Below, in pieces: positions 5,986-28,482 of a stretch of 30,131 bases of DNA. This DNA comes from a virus. A model generated the notes under the pieces. It made no database searches. It saw nothing but the letters and a program-made list of their open reading frames with translations, and was not told the origin of the DNA. The stretch lies in the UHGV virus genome UHGV-0095463; one strand, given 5' to 3'. The position numbers and the translations under genes are program-made. The stretch's first letter is position 1. Each line of letters begins with the position of its first letter.

Positions 5986-6501
5986 TCAGAGGCCGAGTGC
6001 GTTGCGGTGCGCTTCCATCAGGTCCACACCGTCCACAATTTCCACCATGTTGATAAGGTCCACTTCATAGAGCACCTCACCATTGATAGTCAGCTTCGCG
6101 TAGCTGTTGGTACTGGTCACTTTGGTGGTGTTGCTTTCGCCCGTCTTCCACTCGCCGGAATCCACTTCTTTGTGACGTCCACGCACCACAAGCTCCACGG
6201 CCTGCACTTCTCCGGTATCGTCACGCTGGATAGAGCCGGTGAAGCGCAACTGGATGCCATCCACCGTGGCTTTGCCCATCTGTTTAAACAGCAGCAGTTC
6301 AGTACCACCAATGGAAAATTCTGTGTCCAGCGCACTGTCATCAAGCCCCAGATCCACATCCACTGCACCCGGCATTCCGCCGCCGCGATACTTCTCATAT
6401 TTGCGGGTAAATTTCGGCAGCGTCAGCGACTCAACGATCCCCTGCCAGTTGTTCCCGTCATTAAACAGGTTCAGGTGTTTTAATTTGCGTGGTAAAGCCA
6501 T
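5986..6501 (-). CDS. FII: Tail tube protein gpFII
   Basis: 171-aa ORF immediately downstream of the sheath gene; size and order match the P2 tail tube protein. Confidence 0.85.
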   Translation of the reverse strand: MALPRKLKHLNLFNDGNNWQGIVESLTLPKFTRKYEKYRGGGMPGAVDVDLGLDDSALDTEFSIGGTELLLFKQMGKATVDGIQLRFTGSIQRDDTGEVQAVELVVRGRHKEVDSGEWKTGESNTTKVTSTNSYAKLTINGEVLYEVDLINMVEIVDGVDLMEAHRNALGL

Positions 6502-6510
6502 GTTGTCCCC

Positions 6511-7683
6511 TTACGCGCTGACCTGGCTGGAGAAATTCACCAGGTACTGATCGGTGATGCGCTGACGCAGCATCAGGTTTTCAAGTGGCGGCACTGGCGT
6601 GTAGTCGTAGTCGATGGTGAGTTTTCCGGCTTTCAGCGTGTCTTTGTCGTTCACCGACTCATCCAGCCAGCAATCACCACCAATGAGATAGCCCTGACTG
6701 ACCAGGCTGCGCATTTTGGCGCGGATACCCTCGATAATGTCGCGGGCCAGCGACGGATTCAGCGGTTTATCCACCGCCCACATGTGCGCTTCTGCCATCG
6801 TGTCCGTCAGCACCTGCGCCGTGCGGGTGTAGTTTTCGAAGGCAAAGAGCGGGTCATCACTCAGGCAGCGGGACCCCCAGAAGCGGAAACCGTCTTTACG
6901 CACAAGCGTGGTGACGTCGTTCTGGTTCAGCAGACCTGCATCGGTTGCCGGGTCCTGCAGATCCCAGAACACATCTGCAGAAATTCCGGTGACACCGTTC
7001 ACGCCCACATTGGACAGGCTTTTGTGCCATCCGGTCTGCTCGTCAATTTTGGCGCGCAGACCAAGCGCACGGGCGGTGGCATATGCCGTTGCTTCTGCAT
7101 TCAGCACCGTGTCCCAGCCAGTAAAGTCAGGCCAGATCAGCATCCCTTCGCGCTGGCTGAAGTTTTCGCGGTAAGTGATCGCCTCCTGCACTGTCTTGCA
7201 GCCATACGCTGACAGGTAAGCAAATCCACGCAGGCTTTGCGCCACGCTCAGCAACTCAGTAGCTACCGCCTTGGTGTCGTGGCCTGGCACGCCGAGAATG
7301 CGCGGTTTAACGCCGAGCTGTGACTGGGCAGATAACAGGGCTTTCATACCTGTTTTTTTACCTTCAGCAGTCACTGCTCCGATGATATTGGTCGTGGTTT
7401 CTTCTTCCGTTTCACCCTGCGGCACACGCACAACAACGGTCACGGGTTTTGCCTGGTCAGCGATGGCGTCCAGCGAACGGGCCAGCGTACCGGACTCACC
7501 CGCTTTACCGCTGGCAGTCAGCACATCAGTGATCAGCACGGGTTTATTAAGAGGAAACATTTTTGCATCGGCATCATCGCCCGTGCAGACCATACCCACG
7601 ATGGCGGTGCTCACCGTGGTAATGGATCGGGTGCCTTCGTTGACTTCAACAACGCGCACCCCGTGGTGGTAATCCTGAGCCAT
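6511..7683 (-). CDS. FI: Contractile tail sheath protein gpFI
   Basis: 390-aa ORF that is the first gene of the F-E-T-U-D block; size and order match P2 gpFI. Confidence 0.9.
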
Positions 7684-7759
7684 AGCGGCGAACCTCCTGA
7701 TTGGATTAGGCTTCGCCCTATGTTGAAGTGATTGTGCCTGACAAACAGCTAAGCGCAGT

Positions 7760-7777
7760 TGTACCGTTATTCACACA
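7760..7777 (-). promoter_or_regulatory. Putative Ogr-dependent late promoter element (TGT-N12-ACA) upstream of FI
   Basis: TGTACCGTTATTCACACA lies about 85 bp upstream of the FI start codon in the 142-bp gap between the invertase stop (7826) and FI. The TGT-N12-ACA dyad is the recognised activator site of P2/186 late promoters. Confidence 0.5.
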
Positions 7778-7825
7778 AAATGACGGTATTTGTCTGCTTT
7801 CAGGGATAATCAAAATAAAGCTGAT

Positions 7826-8392
7826 TCAGGGAGATTTATTGCTCTTATTTGCCGGAAATTTTCGATAAATGGTAGAAACGCCTACATCAAAAATCAGTGC
7901 AATACGCTGTCTTGATTCTCCGGCCTCGAGTAAACGCCCAATCTGTGCCCACTGTTCGCTGGTCAACTTAGGACGGCGTCCACCTACTCTGCCTTTAGCA
8001 CGAGCTGCAGCCAGCCCCGCCCTGGTACGTTCAACTATCAGTTCGCGTTCCATTTCAGCCAGGGCCCCCATGACATGAAAAAAGAAACGGCCCATTGGGG
8101 TGCTGGTATCAATACTGTCAGTCAGGCTTCGGAAATTCACGCCACGCTGGCGCAGCTCTTCTATCAGCGTAACAAGATGCCGCATACTGCGCCCCAGTCT
8201 GTCCAGCTTCCAGACAACCAGCGTGTCTCCTGCCGATAGTGTCCTGAGCAGCTTTTTCAGCCCCGGTCTGTCGGACTTGGTGCCACTGATTTTATCCTCA
8301 AAAATCCGCTCACATCCCGCACAGTTCAGTGCATTGCGTTGCAAATCGGTGTTCTGGTCATTTGTTGACACGCGTACATAGCCAATAAGCAT
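7826..8392 (-). CDS. Serine recombinase / DNA invertase of the Gin-Hin-Cin-Pin family
   Basis: N-terminus MLIGYVRVSTNDQNTDLQRNAL with the catalytic Ser motif, and a C-terminal HTH (GVSTIYRKF). Start placed at the third ATG (8392), which has a G-rich Shine-Dalgarno 6 nt upstream. Lies next to an inverted-repeat-bounded tail-fibre segment. Confidence 0.9.
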   Translation of the reverse strand: MLIGYVRVSTNDQNTDLQRNALNCAGCERIFEDKISGTKSDRPGLKKLLRTLSAGDTLVVWKLDRLGRSMRHLVTLIEELRQRGVNFRSLTDSIDTSTPMGRFFFHVMGALAEMERELIVERTRAGLAAARAKGRVGGRRPKLTSEQWAQIGRLLEAGESRQRIALIFDVGVSTIYRKFPANKSNKSP

Positions 8393-8447
8393 GATCATCC
8401 CCCTGAATAAAAACCGGAGATGATGCCAGTTAGCCGTTATCTCTGCA

Positions 8448-8473
8448 TTTTCATAAACGTTGGTTTGGGAGAA
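8448..8473. repeat. hix/gix-like inversion crossover site (left)
   Basis: TTTTCATAAACG-TT-GGTTTGGGAGAA. Its half-site GGTTTGGGAGAA is identical to the half-site of the site at 10290..10315 in inverted orientation. Fits the Din-family pattern TTCTC..AAACC-NN-GGTTT..GAGAA with a central 2-bp crossover. Encodes ...NVGLGE... in the plus-strand frame. Confidence 0.7.
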
Positions 8474-8809
8474 TTATCTCTGGCTGGCACTGCATCGGGT
8501 GTCATTGGTCTGAATGGGTATGTAACGATTCCGTTAATTATTTCAGGTTCCCGGAGAACACTGATTATTCAGTGGGGGCAGGCGAGATTTGGTGGGTCTG
8601 GTGGTGAAGATGCCGGATATCTTAATGATTTTCCTTTTGCCTTTCCGTCAGCATGTTATGGAATGATAGTTAGTCATGTGGGGCATACACCTTCAGGCGC
8701 AGGAATCCTGTCGGCTTCTGCAATTACATCAAATCAGTTCCGCGGTTTTTCAAGCATAGCGACTGCTGCAAACGCTGTATTAGGTCGTTATATCGCTATA
8801 GGGGTGTAA
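8462..8809 (+). CDS. Silent alternative tail-fibre C-terminal segment (would be fused to the constant part of H after inversion)
   Basis: Plus-strand frame reads through the crossover site (GLGE) into about 113 aa ending ...RYIAIGV. No promoter of its own; the ORF-track start at 8420 lies outside the invertible segment and is not a real start. Confidence 0.6.
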   Translation, partial: GLGELSLAGTASGVIGLNGYVTIPLIISGSRRTLIIQWGQARFGGSGGEDAGYLNDFPFAFPSACYGMIVSHVGHTPSGAGILSASAITSNQFRGFSSIATAANAVLGRYIAIGV

Positions 8810-8810
8810 T

Positions 8811-9248
8811 ATGTTTTATAGTCCATCTTTAAACATTTTTGTGAATCCTGCACTTAAGGATGATTACATTAATGCAAATTCATGGCCAGATGATGCTCTG
8901 GCTGTCAGTGATGATGTTTATAATGAATTTGCAATAAATACGCCCCCAGATGGCAAAATTCGTGTTGCAGGAGAAAATGGATTACCCACATGGGCACTAA
9001 TACCTCCACCATCACATGAAGAACTTATTCAACAGGCAGAATCAGAAAGGCAATTATTGCTTAATCAGGCCAACGAATACATGAACAGTAAACAATGGCC
9101 CGGTAAAGCCGCTATTGGTCGTCTGAAAGACGAGGAACTGGCGCAATATAATTTGTGGCTGGATTACCTGGACGCACTGGAGCTGGTTGATACCCCCAGT
9201 GGGCCAGATATTGAATGGCCTACGCCTCCGGCAGTTCAGGCCAGATGA
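8811..9248 (+). CDS. Alternative tail-fibre assembly chaperone (silent orientation)
   Basis: 145-aa ORF directly after the alternative fibre C-terminus. Its C-terminal region (...DTPSGPDIEWPTPP) parallels the C-terminus of the minus-strand tfa (...DTSTAPDVIWPELP). The two genes converge and overlap by about 29 bp. Confidence 0.7.
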   Translation: MFYSPSLNIFVNPALKDDYINANSWPDDALAVSDDVYNEFAINTPPDGKIRVAGENGLPTWALIPPPSHEELIQQAESERQLLLNQANEYMNSKQWPGKAAIGRLKDEELAQYNLWLDYLDALELVDTPSGPDIEWPTPPAVQAR

Positions 9249-9822
9249 CATCCGGCGCTGTGCTGGTATCTGTTGCCGTCACCGCGTCAATGTAATCCAG
9301 CACAGTGTTAAGTCGGGTGGTCTCTGCCTGCATCAGCTGCCGCCCGGCCTGCAATTTAAGTTGAATCAGACTAATGGAAGCCATTGCAGTATTAATCAGT
9401 GACTGACGCTGTACTTCTGCCGCGTCTACTGCGGCGCTATGCTGTGCCTCAGTATCGGTCACCCATTTCTTACCATCCCATTTATCGAATGGCGTTAACG
9501 GGGCGATAGTGGTTGTATTTTCAGGATAATCACCCGGAGCTGTGATTTCTTTGGCGTCTCCCGTTTCGGTGTTATAGACGATTTCACCGCGATGGTCTGG
9601 CACATATTCCCATGAGTTTAAATCCATCGAACGGCAGATAGCATAACCCGCCTTATGTATACCAGGTTCATCCAGACAGGAATATGCAGGGATACCGACA
9701 CCAATGGCAAGATATTCATTTGAAGTAGAAATATATTCCCGAGTTTTACCATCATAGTTATAGACGGTAATATTCCCCGCCTTCGTGGCAATAAGCTCGC
9801 TATTTAATACGGCGTTATCCAT
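9220..9822 (-). CDS. G: Tail-fibre assembly chaperone (gpG-like, expressed orientation)
   Basis: 200-aa ORF immediately downstream of H with overlapping stop/start (ATGA); conserved position of P2 gpG. Confidence 0.8.
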   Translation of the reverse strand: MDNAVLNSELIATKAGNITVYNYDGKTREYISTSNEYLAIGVGIPAYSCLDEPGIHKAGYAICRSMDLNSWEYVPDHRGEIVYNTETGDAKEITAPGDYPENTTTIAPLTPFDKWDGKKWVTDTEAQHSAAVDAAEVQRQSLINTAMASISLIQLKLQAGRQLMQAETTRLNTVLDYIDAVTATDTSTAPDVIWPELPEA

Positions 9823-11351
9823 TATGCAGCCCTCACGATATAGTTAAATGCAATATTTCGTGGACGGGTTTCACTCCCGCCAGTATTACCGATACTCCCT
9901 CGTGAATGAAGTGTCGGTGATGGGATCAGACTCCCTCCTGTATTTGTGGCATCAAGTCCCCGTCCTTGTGTGTATGTCTTTTTGAAAATCGTAGCCAGTT
10001 CCCATTCATCTTTTGTGTCGTAACCATCATTGGCAACAACAATATGGCGGTGTTTTTCCAGCATCCCTGTCTGAATGCTCAATAAAACACGTCCTGCATC
10101 AATACCGCGCCCGTCATCCCAGCCACGAATAAACTCACCACGTAAATCAGGCAATTTATTTGTCGGATAAGCCTTTGCCAGTTCCGGGTATTCTTCAGCA
10201 GAAAAAGCCGCACCGTTGCATTTCAGCCAGCCTGTTGGCGGTGTGGCTGAAGGCCATGGAACAGGCACACCAACAGGTAATGCAGAGCCTTCTCCCAAAC
10301 CAAGGTATGCGAGAAGACCAGCTACATCCTTTCCACTCAAATTGGTAAGCGTATTGTCCAGCGGTTGTTTACCTGCCAGCGCATTAAGCATTGTCGTGGC
10401 AAAGTTCGGATCATTTCCCAGCGCCGCCGCCAGTTCGTTCAGCGTATCCAGTGCAGCAGGTGCTGACCCCACCATTGCTGCAATTGCCGATTTCACAAAA
10501 GCCGTGGTGGCAATCTGTGTATTGTTGACCGACTGTTCCGCAGTAGGTGCTGTTGGCGTTCCGGTAAGTGCCGGACTCGACAGTGGCGCTTTTAGTTCCA
10601 GCGCATTGTTAATGGTGGTGCTGAATTTCGGGTCATTGTTTATGGCCGCGGCTATTTCTTTCAGCGTGTCCAGCGTGGCTGGCGCACCACTAATCAGGGC
10701 TGTCAGTGCCGCCTGAACAAACGCGGTGGTCGCAAGTTGCGTGGTATTATTCCCCGCCGCTGGCGTCGGCGCTTTGGGGGTTCCGGTAAATGTCGGGCTG
10801 GCTTTTGGCGCGTACTGTGAATGCGGGTCCGGTGCGGCAAGATGTTTTGCCATCTGATCATCCGCGTACACCTTCAGCTCCAGTGCCTTGTCATCCACAT
10901 ACTTGCGGGTTGCCAGCACTACAGCAGGGTCGATTTTCAGGGTGATATTGTCCGTGCTGCTGGTAATCAGCACCATGCGCACGGTCTGAGTGCGCCCGCT
11001 ACCTTCAGCCAGTTGCGGCTTATAGCTTTCCGGGCAGTTGCCCACGGCAATCAATGCCCCGGACTCATCAAACAAGCCCACTTCACGTATCCACCAACCG
11101 CCCTCGTTTTCAGGGATCACCTGTTCGGCAATAATCTGGCTGCTGTTCTGCGGGTCGATATAAAGCATATTCAGCGCAGCCCGGCGTTTCTCATTTACCA
11201 GTGCCGTCTGCTTTGCGTCCGGCGTTGGCAATACTCCACCGCCATCGCCCACCGCCATATGGGTAATTTTTAGCGGCACACCGAGCGCGGCGGCGCTGGC
11301 AAGTTTCGCCGCGCCAATATCCGTCAGCAGGGTATAAAATTTTGTGCTCAT
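9822..11351 (-). CDS. H: Tail fibre protein gpH (constant N-terminal part plus currently expressed variable C-terminus)
   Basis: 509-aa ORF with Thr/Ala-rich repeats (TAFV.. recurs twice) and the phage tail-collar-like motif ...LRGEFIRGWDDGRGIDAGR. Residues about 346-354 (LLAYLGLGE) are encoded by the right inversion site. Confidence 0.85.
   Translation of the reverse strand: MSTKFYTLLTDIGAAKLASAAALGVPLKITHMAVGDGGGVLPTPDAKQTALVNEKRRAALNMLYIDPQNSSQIIAEQVIPENEGGWWIREVGLFDESGALIAVGNCPESYKPQLAEGSGRTQTVRMVLITSSTDNITLKIDPAVVLATRKYVDDKALELKVYADDQMAKHLAAPDPHSQYAPKASPTFTGTPKAPTPAAGNNTTQLATTAFVQAALTALISGAPATLDTLKEIAAAINNDPKFSTTINNALELKAPLSSPALTGTPTAPTAEQSVNNTQIATTAFVKSAIAAMVGSAPAALDTLNELAAALGNDPNFATTMLNALAGKQPLDNTLTNLSGKDVAGLLAYLGLGEGSALPVGVPVPWPSATPPTGWLKCNGAAFSAEEYPELAKAYPTNKLPDLRGEFIRGWDDGRGIDAGRVLLSIQTGMLEKHRHIVVANDGYDTKDEWELATIFKKTYTQGRGLDATNTGGSLIPSPTLHSRGSIGNTGGSETRPRNIAFNYIVRAA
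10290..10315. repeat. hix/gix-like inversion crossover site (right, inside H)
   Basis: Plus strand TTCTCCCAAACC-AA-GGTATGCGAGAA. Its left half is the exact reverse complement of the right half of the site at 8448..8473. Verified in frame with H codons L347-E354. Confidence 0.7.
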
Positions 11352-11953
11352 GGATTCACTCTCATTGTGTCAATAACATGGACCGCCCCGCCTTCATGCG
11401 CGGTGCCACCGGAAATAATCGTTTCGTTGATATACGGATAGATCGTGATTTCTTCGCCAAGATAGCTGGCGGCTCCCACCCAATGCGGGCCGCTGGTCTG
11501 CAGATTGATGGACATGCCGATCATGTGGCGGCTACATGGTTTGGCATCGCTTATCAGTCGCTCAAGTTCCAGATAGGTATCTTCAGTGATGCCCTGGTCC
11601 TGCACGCCGATATCCAGGCGAAACGTGCCCGGTGTTTCTCCGGTCTGCCACCACTCAATAATGCGGATCAGGAATCCGAACGGTTCCACCACCCGCCGCA
11701 CGGCACTGGTGGTTCCTTTATACTGATGAATATAAAAAGCATCCTTCACTACCTGGCGTTTGACGCTTTCTGTCCAGCCCTCGTCCCAGCGATCCACAGA
11801 GAACGCCCAGGCGAGATAAGGCAGGAAGCTGACCGGACAGGTAGCCGGATTCCACAAGTCACGCAGCGGCACCTGCAAATCAGAAATCCCGCTACAGGTT
11901 TGCGCCAGTCGGCGCTCCAGTGAAGTTGAACCCGGTGGCAGCAGACTATTCAT
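11348..11953 (-). CDS. I: Baseplate protein gpI
   Basis: 201-aa ORF between J and H; size and order match P2 gpI. Confidence 0.85.
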   Translation of the reverse strand: MNSLLPPGSTSLERRLAQTCSGISDLQVPLRDLWNPATCPVSFLPYLAWAFSVDRWDEGWTESVKRQVVKDAFYIHQYKGTTSAVRRVVEPFGFLIRIIEWWQTGETPGTFRLDIGVQDQGITEDTYLELERLISDAKPCSRHMIGMSINLQTSGPHWVGAASYLGEEITIYPYINETIISGGTAHEGGAVHVIDTMRVNP

Positions 11954-12854
11954 CCGTTCCTCCGTTGGTTACGCTCCACTGCGTACATGATGCCGCCTGT
12001 GTTTTGTTCAGGACCACATCCGCCAGCGGAGAAGCCAGTTCCACACGTTGAACACCCTCAACATGCAGAGCAGCAAAGATGGCGCTACGGCGAATATCCC
12101 GACCAAGCCTCGTCTGGCTGGCAATGTACTTCTGCAGACTGGCTTTTGCCGCTGCCATTACCGGCTCTGCTTCCGGTCCCGGATAGAGAAAAATGGTGGC
12201 TTCCACGCGATACGGGATGATTTCTGCGCTGCGAACCGTAAGACGGTCAGCCACCGGGCGGACGTTCTCACTGTTCAGAGCTTTTTCCACCACGTCCAGC
12301 AGGTCTTTTTCTGCAGTTCCATCGCCTTCGCGGCTAAGGACAGTCAGCACCACCTCTGCAGGTGCCGGGCTGGTTGCACTGGCATCCGCCACCCGACCGT
12401 CGGCGCTTCGGGCATGAAATTCATAAGCTGCAGTTGGCCCCGCAACAGAAAGCCCTTCAAAGGCTGCAGGCACACGCAGGCGCAACGCTTCATCGCTTTC
12501 CATCACAGCTGCAACGGGCGGCACAGCATCATTATCAGCAGGCGTCACCGTCAGGCGTGTCACGTTGTAGTTGGCAGCGAGCTGGTCAAGATCGCCGCCC
12601 ATCGCGTAAGCCACCATCACCGCCTGCGCGGCTTCGTTAATGCGCTGGCGCAGAAGCAACTCACGGTAAGCGTTCTCCTGCAACAATTTAGTGGCGGGTT
12701 CAGATTCCAGTTCCAGCGTGCGGATCACTGCTTCCTGCTCATCTTTCGGATGAAGCGCCACAAATTCTGCCTTGCGTTCGGCAAGCAGCGTCTCAAAGTC
12801 CGGCACATCCACAATCTGCGGTGCAGGCAACTGCGAAAGGTCAATCACTGCCAT
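11946..12854 (-). CDS. J: Baseplate wedge protein gpJ
   Basis: Start set at the internal ATG (MAVIDLSQLP...), giving about 302 aa as in P2 gpJ and a 14-nt overlap with the W stop. The ORF-track start at 12893 is probably an upstream extension. Confidence 0.85.
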   Translation of the reverse strand: MAVIDLSQLPAPQIVDVPDFETLLAERKAEFVALHPKDEQEAVIRTLELESEPATKLLQENAYRELLLRQRINEAAQAVMVAYAMGGDLDQLAANYNVTRLTVTPADNDAVPPVAAVMESDEALRLRVPAAFEGLSVAGPTAAYEFHARSADGRVADASATSPAPAEVVLTVLSREGDGTAEKDLLDVVEKALNSENVRPVADRLTVRSAEIIPYRVEATIFLYPGPEAEPVMAAAKASLQKYIASQTRLGRDIRRSAIFAALHVEGVQRVELASPLADVVLNKTQAASCTQWSVTNGGTDE

Positions 12855-13200
12855 TCTCTGCTCCTGTTGATACGGAAAGGGACACAGGCACACCGTTATT
12901 CCGCCGCCCGGTCAGCTCCACCACCATTGAACCGTCAAAATTGCTGTTGATGGTGATGGAATCCAGCGTCAACCGTGGCTCCCAGCGACTCAGCGCCACA
13001 TACACTGCCGACATGACCTGCAGGCGTAATGCCGGATTTTGTGGCTGATCTATCAGTGCCGACAGCAGGGAACCATATTCCCGGCGGGCAATACGGCTAC
13101 CCTGCGGTGTCAGCAGAATGTCCCGCACCGACTGGCGCAGATGATCAATATCAGTAATGACTTTGCCGCTGGTATTGTTCATCCCGCTATAAAGCGTCAT
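12841..13200 (-). CDS. W: Baseplate protein gpW (gp25-like)
   Basis: 119-aa ORF between V and J; size and order match P2 gpW. Confidence 0.85.
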   Translation of the reverse strand: MTLYSGMNNTSGKVITDIDHLRQSVRDILLTPQGSRIARREYGSLLSALIDQPQNPALRLQVMSAVYVALSRWEPRLTLDSITINSNFDGSMVVELTGRRNNGVPVSLSVSTGAENGSD

Positions 13201-13843: not shown

Positions 13844-14290
13844 TCACCCCGCCAGCCATTGCAGAATCATGTCGCGGGTCATTGCCTCAACATCATCATT
13901 TACACCCAGAAGGCGACGCTCTGCGTAACGCACCTCCGGTCCCTTACGACTGACGCGATCTCGCAGGCCGTAATGGTGAACGCGGGCAATGCGCTGCACC
14001 TTGCCTTCAAACTGCACGCTGGCAGAGTCGGTGCTGGCGGCAGTTTTCAGGTATTTTGTGGTGCGCAGCTTTGCAAACATCTGACGTTTGATACGGCCTT
14101 TTTTACTGCGTGCTGTTACCCGTCGCGGTTCATAGCTGCTGCCGTCAGGGTTGCGCTGCATCCTGATATTCTGCTGCTGTGTCCGGCGAAGTTCCTGCGC
14201 CAGCTGGCGCATCATGCGGCTTCTCGAGGCTGGTTCCAGATTCGCCAGCAAGGCACTCAGCCAGTCGTCCACCTTCTGCAGTTCAGCCAC
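13844..14290 (-). CDS. S: Tail completion protein gpS
   Basis: 148-aa ORF between R and V, overlapping the R stop; size and order match P2 gpS. Confidence 0.8.
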   Translation of the reverse strand: MAELQKVDDWLSALLANLEPASRSRMMRQLAQELRRTQQQNIRMQRNPDGSSYEPRRVTARSKKGRIKRQMFAKLRTTKYLKTAASTDSASVQFEGKVQRIARVHHYGLRDRVSRKGPEVRYAERRLLGVNDDVEAMTRDMILQWLAG

Positions 14291-23320: not shown

Positions 23321-24193
23321 TTAAGCTCTCTTAATCAACCCCTTATGCGTTGCTTTGGTAAGATAAGCTAATTCTTTAGGCCCCTTATCTCTAAAGCCCA
23401 CCCATTCTGGTTGGAATTTTATAAAACTTGGAATTGCGGTTGCCAAGGCTGTAACCATACCGGGAATAATACCGCCTGAATAACCAGCAATAGCAGCATG
23501 GTACAACGGTTTTAAAAATTCCATAACCTGCCCACCATCTACTTCTGGATTGGCTTTGACTCCCATTCTGATAGGATTTCTCCATTTCCCTTCGATAGCT
23601 TTATCAAGATTAACTACAGCCTCTTGTAATAAAGAAAAATTTTTAGCCCTCGTTAGATTAGGGTCTCTAGAATAAAGGACTTCAGTATACAGTTTTTCTA
23701 AGTACTCATGTAACGCATTAAGATCATCCTGACAATCATCTTTAAAACGTAATATATCTTCTATATGAGCATCTTTATCAGGAATTCTCAGAACATTAAA
23801 CAACTCCAATCTCAACTGAAGGGCCGTTTTCTGTGCTTTATCATATATTAAATTTTCCCCTGTTTGATGAAAGTGCCAATAAGTAGCAGGCTCGTTCTTC
23901 CTGAATTCATCCAATGTCTGCAACTGAAATTCCGTATATAAAAATGGAAAGTCTTGGATATTCAGCATCCCATCATGTTTCATAATAGGTCTACGTAATA
24001 CCCCATTATCTAATAATTCTTTTTCTTTAGGCACAATCGAGTGAATATTTTCACTATCTAGAATAACCACATCATCCCAGTAAAAGCAGAAATAATTAAT
24101 ATCCTGCTCAGTTAAACCTGCCCCAAGATAGACCGTACTATTATTTCTATGAAAACTCATTTCATTAGGATTAGCTACAATACCACGTTTCAT
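23321..24193 (-). CDS. Unrecognised AT-rich cargo protein (290 aa), a candidate anti-phage / abortive-infection gene
   Basis: ATG at 24193 with AAGGAG 5 nt upstream (the ORF-track start at 24217 has no ribosome-binding site). Strongly AT-rich relative to the flanking phage genes, with AT-rich intergenic regions on both sides and a terminator hairpin downstream. C-terminal Gly/Ala-rich hydrophobic segment LYHAAIAGYSGGIIPGMVTALATAIPSFI. Sits between the tum-like module and cos, the position of the P2 old/tin cargo locus. Confidence 0.7.
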   Translation of the reverse strand: MKRGIVANPNEMSFHRNNSTVYLGAGLTEQDINYFCFYWDDVVILDSENIHSIVPKEKELLDNGVLRRPIMKHDGMLNIQDFPFLYTEFQLQTLDEFRKNEPATYWHFHQTGENLIYDKAQKTALQLRLELFNVLRIPDKDAHIEDILRFKDDCQDDLNALHEYLEKLYTEVLYSRDPNLTRAKNFSLLQEAVVNLDKAIEGKWRNPIRMGVKANPEVDGGQVMEFLKPLYHAAIAGYSGGIIPGMVTALATAIPSFIKFQPEWVGFRDKGPKELAYLTKATHKGLIKRA

Positions 24194-24404
24194 TCTTGCT
24201 CCTTGATAAGCATACACATTTTAAGAATGACATATATTCTAATAATTTCAATACATTATGAGTTATAACTAAAAGTGCAGCATAGGTCTCGCCCTGATAG
24301 ATAATCAAGTGATTACTGTCTTTTTACTTATGGTTAACGCCTCTCAAGGCTCGCGGTTCAACCTTGCTGACGCCAGAAGCAGGTTCAGACGCCAGCAACG
24401 TTTC

Positions 24405-24638
24405 TTAATGCAGCCAGCTGTCGTCTTCCCACACCTTCTGCATAATTTTCATCACTTGTTTTCTTTCTTCGTCCAGTTGCAATCCGGTAAGTTCCACACC
24501 GTTAGAGCTACCTTTGCGGATACGAATTACCGTTTTGGGATACAGGGGGCGCAGATTGCGGTAAAGCTCGGATTCAAGGGCGTCCAGTGTAGACTGGCTA
24601 ATCTTCTGCTCTTTATCGATCATTATTTCAATGCGCAT
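24405..24638 (-). CDS. DinI-like protein (77 aa)
   Basis: From the internal start MRIEIMIDKEQ... the protein ends ...QKVWEDDSWLH, resembling E. coli DinI (MRIEVTIAK...ETWESADDWF, about 80 aa). GAGGTGA Shine-Dalgarno upstream of ATG 24638. Confidence 0.75.
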   Translation of the reverse strand: MRIEIMIDKEQKISQSTLDALESELYRNLRPLYPKTVIRIRKGSSNGVELTGLQLDEERKQVMKIMQKVWEDDSWLH

Positions 24639-24648
24639 AAAAGTCACC

Positions 24649-24837
24649 TCAGCTGATGACATCCATTGAGCGGTTGTATTCGTGGGTTCTGATTTTTGCC
24701 ATGAGTTCATCTGTCAGTTCAGAAACCCACTGCAGAGCCAGCCCCTTCTCTTCATCACTACACTCACTAGCCGCTACAAGCTTAAGAAAAAAATCAATGC
24801 GCTGGAGCTTCAAAGACTCCAAAAAATAGTCCTGCAT
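24649..24837 (-). CDS. Small hypothetical protein (62 aa), possibly the N-terminal module of a Tum-like antirepressor
   Basis: Strong ribosome-binding site (AGGAGG, 4 nt spacer). Lies immediately downstream of a LexA box and immediately upstream of the DinI-like ORF in a different frame. Confidence 0.55.
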   Translation of the reverse strand: MQDYFLESLKLQRIDFFLKLVAASECSDEEKGLALQWVSELTDELMAKIRTHEYNRSMDVIS

Positions 24838-24989: not shown

Positions 24990-27404
24990 TTAATACAGGT
25001 TCCGCCACTTATCATCTTCCTTCAGACGCTGGTTCCGATAGAAGATACGCAGGCCAGCTCCTGACGGAATACTGCCGCCGCGAAGGAGCAAATCGACTTC
25101 TTTCTCGCTGCCATCAAATCCCCTGGACTTCAGTTCATAGACGAGCTGCTGTCGCTGATGGTCTGTAATTCGCTGTTTGTAGTCTTTACGCCGTTTCGGT
25201 TTCACCTGGCGTAACCTTGCAGCCAGTTCCCGGCGCTCTTTTTTGCTCATACTGTGCAGGTAATCGTGCAACTCCTTGTCATTCATACGGGTAATATCCG
25301 TTCTGGAGTCCCCATCAGCTGATTTGTCTTTCCCTTGTTGGTTCAAATTTTCAGCAAGGGGACAGTTATTGCCACGAGTCCAAGGGGCGCAAGCGCCCTG
25401 GTCGGCTGCCGCCTCCTGAACGTCAACGGCTTTACGAACCATTTTCCACTTCACTGCATGAGTGCAGATCTTGCCCTCTGCAATGGGTGACCAGATGCCA
25501 TAAATACGAATGCCGTGATCGCCATAGGCGGTCGGCTCTTCGTTGATTTCATAAGCGGTTCTGATGAGGTGATATTTACGGGGAACCAGTACGCCGCCCT
25601 GCTTCATGATGTAGGTGGCAAAACAACCAGCATCAGCAGCAGCCAGAATGGCATCAAGACGCGGGTTATCCAGTACCGGCGCACCTGCATTTTTGTCCCC
25701 CTGTTGCCTTGCCGCCTGACCAGCCAACAATCGCAGTTCACGGTAAGCCTGACGCCCCGGAATGCCAAAGAAGCGGAATTGCTGAACACGATGCAAAGAC
25801 GCCCAGGCATTCACGTATTCAGCGTTATCACGCAGAGATTTACCCGTTTCCTTGCTGATCTCGCCAGCCAGACCACGACCGTCAATGTTCTTACTGATAT
25901 ATTTCGCGATGTAGCTTGTCGGCGTTCCTTTGCGCGGGTTAATCAACTCAGACTTAAAGCGCGGCCCAGTGTTATTGCCCAGCTCCTCGCGGTCTTCACG
26001 GATGGCAAACTTACGCAGTAATGCAGTGATGGCACGGCGGTCTTTTTTGCGCATGAAACACAACAGGTGCCAGTGAACTGTGCCATCATGATGCGGCTCA
26101 GCCACCCGCACGCCATACCAGCGCAACCCGGCTTTGTGCATCGCCTTACGAAATGCAGCAAACATGCCGACCAGATAATCGCTGCTTTGTCTTACCGTCG
26201 CGTTTGTCCAGGTCGGGTTTGGTCTGCCGTTATTTAGCGTGGAATGGAAACGCGACGGACAGGTGATAGTGTAGAAAACGGCGCAGTCACCGCGCATTTC
26301 CGCGATAAGCTCCAGACCTTTAACACAGGCCATCATCTCATTGCGGCGATGCGCAGGGTTGCTGCTGCTGGCGTTTACCACATCCTCCATGTCCAGCGTG
26401 TCGCCGTCTTCGTTCACCAGTTCATGAGAACGGAAAAACTCCAGCGACTTACGGCGCTGCTCACGTTTATGCATCACGGCTTCATAGCTGACATAAGGAG
26501 ATGCTTTTTTGCTGACCAGGCAAACAGCGCGCAACTGCTCTTCCCGCCATTCGCAACGCATCTTCCATAATTTCCGATACCACCAGTCGGCGCACAACAT
26601 ACGCGCCAGCGAACCCGGAATGAGTTCATAGGGCACGGGTTTACGGCGGTTTCTTTTCCGACGGAGTTGCTCAAACGCAGGTGGGATGACATCCAGACGC
26701 AGGGTTTCCGCTGCCACCTTTTCCCATGTCTTGCGGATTTCTTCTGGCTTAACGTCATCGGTGGCATACAAATCACCACAAGCTGCATCAAGGCACATAC
26801 TCATATGCGCAGCTACCAGGGTGGACAGGCGTTTCACCTGATCCTGACTCATTTCAGGCAGGATCAGCAGGCCGTCCAGCCCTTCATGGCTTGCCATAAA
26901 GCGAAAAGATGCAGATAGCTGACTGTCGCGTACATGCTCCAGTCGTTCCAGACATGGCTTAATCGTCTCACGTAAATAGCGGGAATAAGCCTTTGGCCTG
27001 CCCAGGCTGCTGAAGTATTCAATACGTTGCATCAGCGGCTTGCTGATATGGGAAGGCTGGGCGTTGACGTCCGCCAGAATGACCATGTCTGAATTAAAAC
27101 GCTGCTGCTCATGCGCCAGCTTTGCCCGGCTAATGAGCTTATCCTGCTCCATTTCGCGCTGGACAGGATCACGTGATTCATTAAAGAAATAACGCTCCCA
27201 GACCTGATCACTCAGTGCCTCGCGGCGCAACTGTTCCTGCTCGTTATCGGCAGCGTACAGAGTGATCAGGTTTGAAAGCGTAGAAACCGGCGCAACTTCC
27301 GCCGGGTCCAGATAAGGGTTAATGGCCTTTTTCGGGCTGTTCCATGAGAATGCTGCGGCAGCCTCGTTAAAGCCGCAGCAGTTGTTCATATCGGCATGAG
27401 TCAT
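24990..27404 (-). CDS. A: Rolling-circle replication initiator protein A
   Basis: 804-aa ORF containing ...[18 protein letters not shown]..., the tandem-tyrosine active-site motif of Rep endonucleases. Position and size match the P2/186 A gene. Confidence 0.9.
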
Positions 27405-28258
27405 GCACGTACTCCGTACACGGCAGAACTATCCACGCCACGCGAATAATCAAATCCCATCCAGCAGCACGGCCCGGAAACAGCAATGATTTCTGTTGCT
27501 GATTTACCCTCGCCAGCTGCCACACCGATGCTGCGTTTTACCTTGATATAGTGGTGAGTAAAATTGCGATACAGCGAACGGATCAGGGATGTGTCACTGT
27601 TAGAAACAATGACTGGATGTCCTTCTGATGACCGATGTTCAAGAACGGATGCCAGGTGATACTGGTCATCTTCAGTGAAACCATCAGTGTGATAGCCGGA
27701 AAACGTACCGTCATACGGCGGATCGCAATACACCACATCTCCCGCGTGCAACATTGCCAGCGTTTCATCGAAGCTGGCGCAGATAAATGTTGCCCGCTGG
27801 GCTTTTTCTGCAAATGCACGAATTTCTTTTTCAGGGAAATACGGATTTTTATAATTACCGTAGGGAATGTTGAAATGCCCGCTCTTGTTATAGCGACATA
27901 AACCACGGTAACCGTGACGATTGAGATACAGGAAATATACCGCTTTCATGAAATCAGTAATTTCAGTGGAGTAATTAAACTCCTGCCTTATGTTGTAATA
28001 AGCCACCTCCCTGTTTGCGATCTCAAATAAAACTCTGGCGCGAGATATAAACGATTCACAATCAGCGGCAACCTTTTTATAGAGGTTGATTAAATCAGGA
28101 TTAATATCCGCAACCAGATAGCTGGGGTAATCCGTCTCCATCATCACAGCACAGGAACCCGCGAAAGGTTCAACCAGTCGCGGGCCAGCAGGAAGGTGTT
28201 TTTTCAGTTCGGACATAATGGCGGTTTTATTTCCCGCCCATTTCAGGATGGTGCTCAT
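27401..28258 (-). CDS. dam: DNA adenine (N6) methyltransferase, Dam family
   Basis: Start placed at [11 protein letters not shown] (the ORF-track start at 28318 would overlap the upstream gene). Motifs LKWAGNK, EPFAGS and DPPY; close resemblance throughout to E. coli Dam (e.g. [24 protein letters not shown]). Confidence 0.85.
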
Positions 28259-28482
28259 ACAGCACCTCCGTTGTAATGTTTGCCTTTCAGCTCTGCGATT
28301 TCCTGGCAGGTAATGCAAAGCTGCACTCCCGGAATGGCGCGGCGTCGTGCCGGCGGAATTGGCGCTTCACATTCAATACAAAGCACGCGAGACACGCCCG
28401 GTGTTTTGGCACGGGCAGCACGAATATGGCGCTGGCGTTCTTCTTCAACGCGCTGCTGTACGAGATCCATTGTATCAGCCAT
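28255..28482 (-). CDS. TraR/DksA-family C4 zinc-finger protein
   Basis: 75-aa ORF with CIECEAPIP...CITCQ (C-x2-C-x17-C-x2-C), typical of phage TraR-like proteins in P2-family early operons. Confidence 0.7.
   Translation of the reverse strand: MADTMDLVQQRVEEERQRHIRAARAKTPGVSRVLCIECEAPIPPARRRAIPGVQLCITCQEIAELKGKHYNGGAV

Follow-up and report, generated by a model that had tools for sequence, protein, structure and literature searches.

A probable invertase-driven tail-fibre switch in a P2-like prophage, most closely related to the P segment of e14

Genes and crossover sites of the locus

The window, by which we mean the whole stretch of 30,131 nucleotides that was analysed (virus genome UHGV-0095463), holds on its minus strand a serine DNA invertase of the Pin/Gin/Hin family (7826-8392). 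The open frame (7826-8398) reaches an upstream ATG at 8398, and the ATG at 8392, which gives a protein of 188 residues as annotated in relatives, is the likely start. The protein is built like other small serine recombinases: its N-terminal catalytic domain (Pfam Resolvase, 2.4e-53) carries the nucleophilic Ser9, kept within YVRVSTNDQ, and an HTH (HTH_7, 5.8e-16) lies at the C-terminus. It is 87% identical to PinE of e14 and 75% identical to Gin of Mu, which bears out the original prediction of a Gin/Hin-family invertase adjoining the segment described below, and it matches the Gin structures in the PDB (3uj3 at E 6e-93; 3uj3 and 4m6f both near 1e-92). The residues by which Hin contacts Fis and the enhancer are K47, R/K48 and K/R51 along with Q151, R154 and L155 (McLean 2013, PMC3798978), and their equivalents K46, K47, R50, Q150, R153 and L154 are present in the window invertase under a numbering (Hin = window+1) deduced by aligning it with Gin and 1hcr. 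Furthermore, the wild-type His is found at the position of Hin-107 and the wild-type Met where crystallised Gin constructs have Val. The invertase is intact and of full length with every tested functional residue kept, and the region of the catalytic serine is free of the inactivating change that had been named in advance as speaking against a working switch.

The 5' 100 nt of the invertase gene align well with Mu gin. A strict scan for two G-N13-C 15-mers with a centre spacing of 48 bp picks out two Fis sites in Mu gin, with centres 53 and 101, and none at the aligned positions of the window gene, although this criterion is perhaps overly strict. At codons 1-20 the synonymous variation is 0.11-0.20 as against about 0.3 elsewhere, a difference that comes from too small a set, eight distinct genes, and is confounded with the gene start. 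The switch presumably depends on Fis and an enhancer. Consensus scans for a sigma-70-like promoter were negative both for the invertase and for the plus strand upstream of the open reading frame at 8420-8809.

This latter frame opens the first of two cassettes that lie on opposite strands, each consisting of a fibre tip and an assembly chaperone. It opens with a leader of 18 residues from the ATG at 8420 and encodes, at 8474-8809 on the plus strand, a silent alternative C-terminal (receptor-binding) fibre part with a gp53-like C domain (Pfam Gp53-like_C, 1.3e-12) that is 37% identical to the C-terminus of e14 StfP. One base past its stop begins a likewise silent tail-fibre assembly chaperone of 145 residues (8811-9248, plus strand; Pfam Caudo_TAP, 7e-33), which is TfaP-like (50% identical to e14 TfaP) and cognate to the gp53-like tip. 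The minus strand carries the cassette in the expressed orientation, i.e. a TfaE-like chaperone of 200 residues (9220-9822; Caudo_TAP, 3.8e-31; 86% identical to e14 TfaE), and the variable C-terminal part of the tail fibre H that is currently fused (9822-10289, stop codon included). The two chaperone genes are convergent and overlap by 29 bp, and H is joined to the 200-residue chaperone gene by a TAATG stop/start overlap, so that tip and chaperone are tightly coupled in both cassettes. The fused tip is StfE-like (61% identity to e14 StfE over H residues 350-509) and has a Collar domain (Pfam, 4.5e-15, residues 361-408), and the two tips belong to unrelated domain families. The constant N-terminal part of H (10316-11351, minus strand) is P2 H-like, with a match to the N-terminal Phage_tail_fib family (6.9e-65) and 54% identity between H residues 1-332 and P2 H residues 1-329.

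The two cassettes are enclosed by an inverted repeat, the arms of which (8448-8473 and 10290-10315, 26 nt each) are separated by 1816 nt and complementary at 21/26 positions. Both arms are built 12+2+12 and are imperfectly palindromic, with identical non-palindromic 2-bp cores, as is found for the sites of Fis/enhancer-dependent serine invertases. The invertase-proximal or left site reads TTTTCATAAACG-TT-GGTTTGGGAGAA with the core dinucleotide at 8460-8461, whereas the distal or right site, located inside H, reads TTCTCCCAAACC-AA-GGTATGCGAGAA with its core at 10302-10303; its reverse complement is TTCTCGCATACC-TT-GGTTTGGGAGAA, such that the TT core is the same when the sites are compared inverted. 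Core to core, 8460-10303, the segment spans 1844 bp, in keeping with the 1.84 kb first estimated. The shared half-site and core also hold good, since the 14-mer TTGGTTTGGGAGAA, common to both sites, has two copies in the whole window, one on each strand, with 0.03 copies expected from shuffles and two or more matches in 0/100 of them. A scan with a degenerate palindromic Gin/Hin-type 26-mer likewise returns the two sites only, with one mismatch apiece and 0.01 expected, and neither the 14-mer nor the 26-mer scan of the window finds a third site of the kind expected for a shufflon-like multi-state switch. The outer half-sites have diverged. The sites are furthermore read in frame: H translates through the distal site as LLAYLGLGEGSALPVG and the frame at 8420-8809 through the left site as IFINVGLGELSLAG, both giving GLGE as had been claimed. 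The locus thus has an in-frame site inside a fibre gene and alternative tips with cognate chaperones on opposite strands, as in the phage tail-fibre host-range switches of the Mu G, P1 C and e14 P type.

Orientation of the segment in other genomes

When the segment is flipped in silico, the constant part of H is fused to the gp53-like C-terminus with the 145-residue chaperone directly behind. The product has 465 residues, the gp53-like part being residues 351-465, and this part is 115/115 identical to annotated tail fibres of E. coli ST95-32 and PSJ-12, while the whole product is identical to these at 456-457/465 positions. Both genomes hold the segment in the opposite orientation (1847 nt; 99.84% identical in ST95-32 and 98.70% in PSJ-12), the homology breakpoints fall at 8460-8473 and 10290-10306, inside the sites, and the flipped sequence aligns with them end to end over 3701 nt. 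The prediction that inversion would exchange the C-terminus of H along with its cognate chaperone is thereby matched by naturally occurring P2-like prophages, and annotated full-length fibre frames are known in both states.

The junction of invertase and gp53-like tip, i.e. the orientation seen here, occurs in about 48 complete E. coli genomes, that of the H constant part with the gp53-like tip (the opposite orientation) in 19, and that of the H constant part with the Collar tip in 393. The junctions of the H constant part were counted because the flipped left junction, present in 867 genomes, probably takes in loci of the e14 type, which have stfE beside pinE, and this number was dropped as evidence on P2-like prophages. 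Most of the locus is collinear in at least 255 complete E. coli genomes, and the best match to 6500-12900 in that collection is 97.1%. The orientation differences are snapshots across diverged prophages with flanks 94-97% identical rather than sister clones, and a search of the complete E. coli genomes with the ST95-32 locus as query turned up no relative at least 99% identical across the locus. On comparative grounds the segment appears to be one that inverts, as both orientations are found among genomes and a homologous locus and an identical site flip. The window itself presents a single orientation, and inversion presumably takes place in this strain too.

Relation to known invertible segments

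As judged by sequence likeness, the nearest relative of the switch is the P segment of e14 with its invertase Pin rather than the G segment of Mu. The P segment and PinE reportedly go back to work by Plasterk and van de Putte in 1985. In addition to the similar invertase, the left site is identical at 26/26 positions to the pinE-proximal site, TT core included, and the layout is the same, with a gp53-like tip and TfaP-like chaperone facing a TfaE-like chaperone and a Collar-type StfE-like tip in a segment of 1797 bp. The e14 segment inverts at TTGGTTTGGGAGAAGG under PinE or PinQ (Kirigo et al. 2025, PMC12529663). The element differs in being defective and lambdoid with truncated fibre genes, whereas a full-length P2-type H is found here in an apparently complete prophage.

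The original prediction of a Mu G-type switch in a P2-type module stands as regards the mechanism class and the module, but not as regards the closest kin. The gix site of Mu, TTATCCAAAACC-TC-GGTTTACAGGAA, lies in the same frame at the boundary between constant and variable parts (LGLQE in Mu, LGLGE here), convergent tip-plus-chaperone pairs are found in both, and the distance from the site centre to the invertase ATG is 67 bp in Mu and 68 bp here. Mu however has 34-bp perfect repeats, a TC core and a segment of roughly 3 kb, and BLASTP of the variable tips against Mu S and S' gave no match, so that the segment does not qualify as a G segment proper; the chaperone C-termini alone match those of Mu (31-36%).

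The tail module is that of P2-like phages (Peduoviridae), with homologous proteins in the order V-W-J-I-H-chaperone ... FI-FII-E-T-U-D. The FI, FII, D and gpA families are present in the window, I is 56% identical to that of P2, and the closest phage records are Wadgaonvirus and Elveevirus. As stated in the original prediction, reference P2 runs H-G-fun(Z)-FI and lacks the invertase, the second cassette and the partner site, its H having kept, at the corresponding boundary (EYLGLQET), a single gix-like 26-mer. In the window there is no fun(Z) between G and FI, and the invertase, lying between the chaperone genes and FI, fills the slot. The slot is known as a variable hotspot that often contains an invertase (preprint 10.1101/2024.10.15.618418). 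The idea that a switch in a P2-type module is out of the ordinary does not hold up, since such loci are widespread and already described. In EPEC E2348/69, inversions in P2-like prophages were proven by sequencing and PCR (Goldberg et al. 2014, PMC4272514), and in clonal cultures the two orientations of a homologous cassette, carried by a P2-like prophage remnant, exist side by side (PMC4272514 Table S1). The site at this homologous locus is identical to the left site at 25/26 positions and the DNA identity of the cassettes is 87-93%, although the remnant lacks the constant part of H. Another EPEC P2-like locus has three repeats and four states (PMC4272514), as against only two sites here. Fin of Salmonella Fels-2 is likewise a known tail-fibre invertible locus of a P2-like prophage (PMC7953296). 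The gene layout, including an invertase between the chaperone genes and FI, is shared by EPEC E2348/69, Fels-2 and phages 500465-1, Cartapus and KP12, in phage records of this layout the invertase and the two assembly genes are annotated already, and cassette contents vary from phage to phage.

Proposed mechanism, alternatives and meaning

Very probably the locus works as a two-state tail-fibre switch, driven by an invertase of the Pin/Gin/Cin/Hin type, in an apparently complete P2/186-like (Peduoviridae) prophage. The sequences show its anatomy and its reading frames, an intact invertase, sites identical to ones proven to invert elsewhere and the natural occurrence of the segment in two orientations. 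Invertase dimers would bind both 26-bp sites and, with host Fis on an enhancer that should lie within the 5' portion of the invertase gene, form a synaptic tetramer, which would cut both sites at the TT/AA core, rotate by 180 degrees and religate, leaving the 1844-bp segment inverted. The constant part of H would stay in place and take either C-terminus, and since the distal site lies in frame at its boundary with the variable part, expression would be confined to the cassette that faces the side of the H promoter. The present orientation would express the Collar-type tip and the TfaE-like chaperone, and inversion would yield the 465-residue fibre with the gp53-like tip along with the TfaP-like chaperone. 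A lysogen population may in this way give rise to two virion types of different adsorption specificity, the two tips presumably recognizing different receptors.

An improbable alternative is that the layout is inherited and inversion has ceased, because the outer half-sites are weak, the enhancer has decayed or the invertase is not expressed, such that the alternative cassette is permanently silent. The divergence of the outer half-sites, with arms agreeing at just 21/26 positions, and the failure of the scans to detect a Fis-site pair or a promoter are in agreement with this notion, and locked relatives do exist: the invertase of CP019275 is frameshifted, and the lone gix-like sequence in H of reference P2 is a relic. 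However, the full-length invertase with its functional residues, the identity of the left site to the functional e14 site, the intact frames of the silent cassette, identical to versions expressed elsewhere, and the occurrence of both orientations among relatives all speak for a working switch.

It is very unlikely that the switch instead, or in addition, toggles a host defence against phages, with the frame at 8420-8809 providing a free adsorption blocker. The notion stems from e14 StfE2, which is reported to block adsorption of T2 (PMC12529663) and has the same layout, a leader (MPFACYFFIFINVGLGE in e14, MMPVSRYLCIFINVGLGE here) followed by an StfP-like gp53-type C-terminus. The C-terminal part is however only 37% identical to StfP, the plus-strand upstream region is devoid of a promoter-like site, PADLOC gives no match save a marginal Cas5b (E 0.0046), and the prophage appears structurally complete, so that an ordinary host-range role suffices. 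That the frame is expressed at all as a free StfE2-like protein, which occupies a surface receptor and blocks the adsorption of competing phages, is itself a slim prospect, if a slightly better one; if true, the switch would toggle, along with virion host range, a defence phenotype that the prophage confers on its lysogen. Finally, although inverted repeats can mislead assemblers and static assemblies were compared, the idea that the opposite orientations elsewhere are assembly errors or products of RecA-dependent recombination between short repeats, with no part for the invertase, can practically be dismissed, since the exact common repeat of 14 bp is too short for efficient RecA action or for confusing complete long-read assemblies, the breakpoints fall on the cores of canonical invertase sites, full-length fibre frames are annotated in both states, and inversion at the same sequence has been proven experimentally.

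Under the preferred reading of a working two-state switch, the frame at 8420-8809 and its neighbour should be annotated as the alternative half of an invertible cassette rather than as independent genes, and two fibre variants should be counted for the prophage. Which fibre sequence appears in an assembly is decided by the orientation that was captured, with consequences for host-range prediction, for prophage typing and for the comparison of assemblies. Switches of this kind are not new, having been described before, and they are frequent in E. coli prophages; the locus adds one more instance of a textbook bet-hedging device, widespread in E. coli, but no new concept.

Crossover sites and gene layout of the tail-fibre locus

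The repeat finder returned a single 26-nt inverted pair in the window, with arms at 8448-8473 and 10290-10315 that match at 21 of 26 positions and are 1816 nt apart. Divided 12+2+12, the left site reads TTTTCATAAACG-TT-GGTTTGGGAGAA and the right site, as its reverse complement, TTCTCGCATACC-TT-GGTTTGGGAGAA; the two thus share the inner half-site and the 2-bp core but not the outer half-site. This bears out the original prediction of two inverted 26-bp sites with a common half-site and core bounding a segment of about 1.84 kb, the length core to core (8460-10303) being 1844 bp. The 14-mer common to both sites has exactly two copies in 30 kb, one on each strand, where shuffled sequences give an expectation of 0.03, and a degenerate Gin/Hin-style 26-mer matches the window at these two sites only. 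Since neither the 14-mer count nor the degenerate 26-mer scan found a third crossover site in the window, the device is a two-state one.

The tail fibre gene H (9822-11351, minus strand) encodes 509 aa that include an N-terminal Phage_tail_fib domain and, at residues 361-408, a Collar domain; beside it is P2-type I (11348-11953, minus strand), and at its other end it overlaps, as TAATG, the gene of a 200-aa assembly chaperone (9220-9822, minus strand, Caudo_TAP). Within the segment on the plus strand are a 129-aa ORF (8420-8809) whose C-terminal domain is gp53-like and, separated from it by 1 base, the gene of a 145-aa assembly chaperone (8811-9248, Caudo_TAP), the two chaperone genes being convergent with an overlap of 29 bp. 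The invertase ORF (7826-8398, minus strand, Resolvase and HTH_7) is outside the segment, its ATG 68 bp from the centre of the proximal site (67 bp in Mu), and the sheath and tube genes FI and FII follow past the segment on the minus strand. H reads the distal, right site in frame as ...AYLGLGEGSALPVG... and the plus-strand ORF reads the proximal, left one in frame as ...FINVGLGELSLAG..., so that the GLGE reading proposed for both sites is seen in each.

The four cassette genes (8474-10289) have a G+C content of 0.44-0.49, lower than that of the constant part of H (0.556), FI (0.571) and the window as a whole (0.527); this base composition would fit cassettes of foreign or shuffled origin. A terminator-like hairpin with a T-run, a weak consensus match only, is found at 8412-8431 (minus strand) between the proximal site and the invertase start, and this candidate could shield the invertase from late-operon read-through.

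The two orientations

Reverse-complementing 8460-10303 in silico gives an uninterrupted 465-aa fibre, H', consisting of the constant part of H, GLGE and the gp53-like C-terminus, with the 145-aa chaperone gene directly after it and the Collar-type part left as the invertase-proximal fragment; inversion would thus, as had been proposed, exchange the C-terminal part of H and its chaperone for the silent pair on the opposite strand. The E. coli genomes ST95-32 (NZ_CP043950) and PSJ-12 (NZ_AP027622) have the segment in this opposite orientation, with 99.84% and 98.70% identity, respectively, over 1847 nt. The strand changes relative to both at 8460-8473 and 10290-10306, that is within both sites, and the flipped sequence aligns with both from one end to the other, over 3701 nt. 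Their annotated fibres, likewise 465 aa long, share 456-457 residues with H', including 115 of 115 in the swapped part.

Among 5426 complete E. coli genomes, counting matches over 80% or more of a 500-nt junction query, the invertase stands beside the gp53-like tip, as in the window, in 48, and the constant part of H is joined to the gp53-like tip, the opposite state, in 19 and to the Collar tip in 393. The 867 genomes with an invertase/Collar junction were left out of account, since this number probably takes in e14-type loci where stfE adjoins pinE. The compared genomes are snapshots of diverged prophages with flanks 94-97% identical, not sister clones; at the level of sequence they demonstrate past inversion of the segment at these sites, while inversion in the window strain itself is a prediction.

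In ST95-32 the segment (8460-10306) is 99.84% identical but its flanks (7700-8473 and 10290-11400, comprising the invertase and the constant part of H) only 94-95%, and it therefore seems that P2-like prophages exchange the cassette, with the crossover sites as its limits. CP019275.1 (p13P477T-2, 37,446 bp, circular), deposited as a plasmid and listed in a phage collection, carries a P2-like tail module in which the invertase is annotated as frameshifted (locus 2127-2685) and the segment is opposite to that of the window; it is probably a naturally locked variant. Several homologous E. coli loci (e.g. NZ_CP047277, NZ_CP060065, NZ_CP095856 and NZ_CP101920) are interrupted in the tail-fibre/invertase region by IS421, IS1A or ISCro1.

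The invertase and its relatives

Counted from the ATG at 8392 the invertase has 188 aa, the length annotated in its relatives, and is 87% identical to PinE of the E. coli element e14 and 75% to Mu Gin, matching Gin crystal structures at E about 1e-92. Ser9 lies within YVRVSTNDQ. Fis/enhancer-dependent invertases are marked by K47, R/K48, K/R51, Q151, R154 and L155 of Hin (McLean et al., PMC3798978), and with the numbering offset inferred from alignments all are found here, as K46, K47, R50, Q150, R153 and L154; positions where mutation makes Gin or Hin Fis-independent are likewise wild-type. The assignment to the Gin/Hin family thus stands. The first 100 nt of the gene align well with Mu gin; a strict scan of the gene found no pair of Fis sites at the positions aligned to Mu gin. 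Synonymous variation dips at codons 1-20 (n = 8 sequences only), and a consensus scan found no sigma-70-like promoter for the invertase.

By sequence, the nearest relative of the switch is the e14 P segment, and the system is of the Pin/e14 type. The pinE-proximal site of e14 is identical to the left site at 26 of 26 positions, with the same TT core, and identities to the e14 proteins are 86% for TfaE, 61% for the StfE part, 50% for TfaP and 37% for the StfP C-terminus. The e14 segment is inverted by PinE and PinQ at TTGGTTTGGGAGAAGG (Kirigo et al. 2025, PMC12529663), a sequence equal to that of the window. That the locus is a locked fossil is unlikely, since the invertase and the silent ORFs are intact and the site is identical to a functional one. 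A host-defence role of the invertase-proximal ORF is suggested by its configuration, a short leader and a gp53-like domain as in e14 StfE2, but the consensus scan found no sigma-70-like promoter for this ORF either and identity to StfP is only 37%, and the role is very improbable; an assembly or RecA artefact can practically be disregarded.

The original prediction likened this invertase-driven switch to the Mu G segment, and the class is indeed the same, since the reading frame through Mu gix (TTATCCAAAACC-TC-GGTTTACAGGAA) is the same, giving LGLQE; the variable tips, however, have no match in Mu S or S', and the e14 P segment is closer.

Invertible switches in P2-like prophages

The window is a P2/186-like prophage, encoding CII (CP76), a Dam-type methyltransferase, gpA and gpD, with the portal, terminase, capsid, lysis and baseplate positions filled by candidate ORFs through matching size and order. 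The methyltransferase is an orphan D12-class adenine enzyme (27401-28318, minus strand) immediately upstream of gpA with a 4-nt overlap, and a DinI-like protein (24405-24710, minus strand) is encoded downstream of gpA. The old/tin hotspot, the place of defence cargo in P2-like phages, is occupied here by the gene of a 298-aa DUF6236 protein (23321-24217, minus strand), which stands between gpA and the portal gene, gave no PADLOC match and is possibly an uncharacterised cargo gene.

Reference P2 has the order H-G-fun(Z)-FI and no invertase, in agreement with the claim that canonical P2 is without such a switch. Its H gene nevertheless contains, at about 13857-13882 of NC_001895, a single gix-like 26-mer, TTATCGAATATCTCGGTTTACAGGAA, which agrees with Mu gix at 22 of 26 positions and is read EYLGLQET at the boundary at which likeness to the window H ends; since P2 has neither a partner site nor an invertase, this 26-mer looks, from its sequence, like the relic of a lost switch.

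An invertible switch in a P2-type module is already known. P2-like phages often encode a DNA invertase in the fun(Z) hotspot, with adjacent genes inverting (2024 preprint 10.1101/2024.10.15.618418), and the tail-fibre region of Fels-2 inverts beside a pin/fin homologue (PMC7953296). In EPEC E2348/69, whole-genome sequencing revealed two invertible loci in P2-like prophages, one PCR-confirmed and both quantified (Goldberg et al. 2014, PMC4272514). The simple one is homologous to the window locus, its site being 25/26 and its cassette DNA 87-93% identical; here (NC_011601.1 2977243-2980112) cassette and invertase persist in a remnant where, next to the distal site, a truncated tyrosine-integrase pseudogene stands instead of the constant part of H. 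Inversion is still measured at this remnant, 93% forward (Goldberg 2014, PMC4272514), and flipping is thus maintained without a complete fibre gene.

The layout, with invertase and both assembly genes annotated, is shared by Escherichia phage 500465-1 (Wadgaonvirus), Cartapus (Elveevirus; invertase annotated as 'Mu phage Gin invertase homolog'), Klebsiella phage KP12 and a P2-like phage from O157:H43, and 80% or more of window 6500-12900 is present collinearly in at least 255 complete E. coli genomes. The tail-fibre switch as first observed is confirmed and its interpretation as invertase-driven supported, with the refinement that it is of the Pin/e14 type and common in P2-like prophages.
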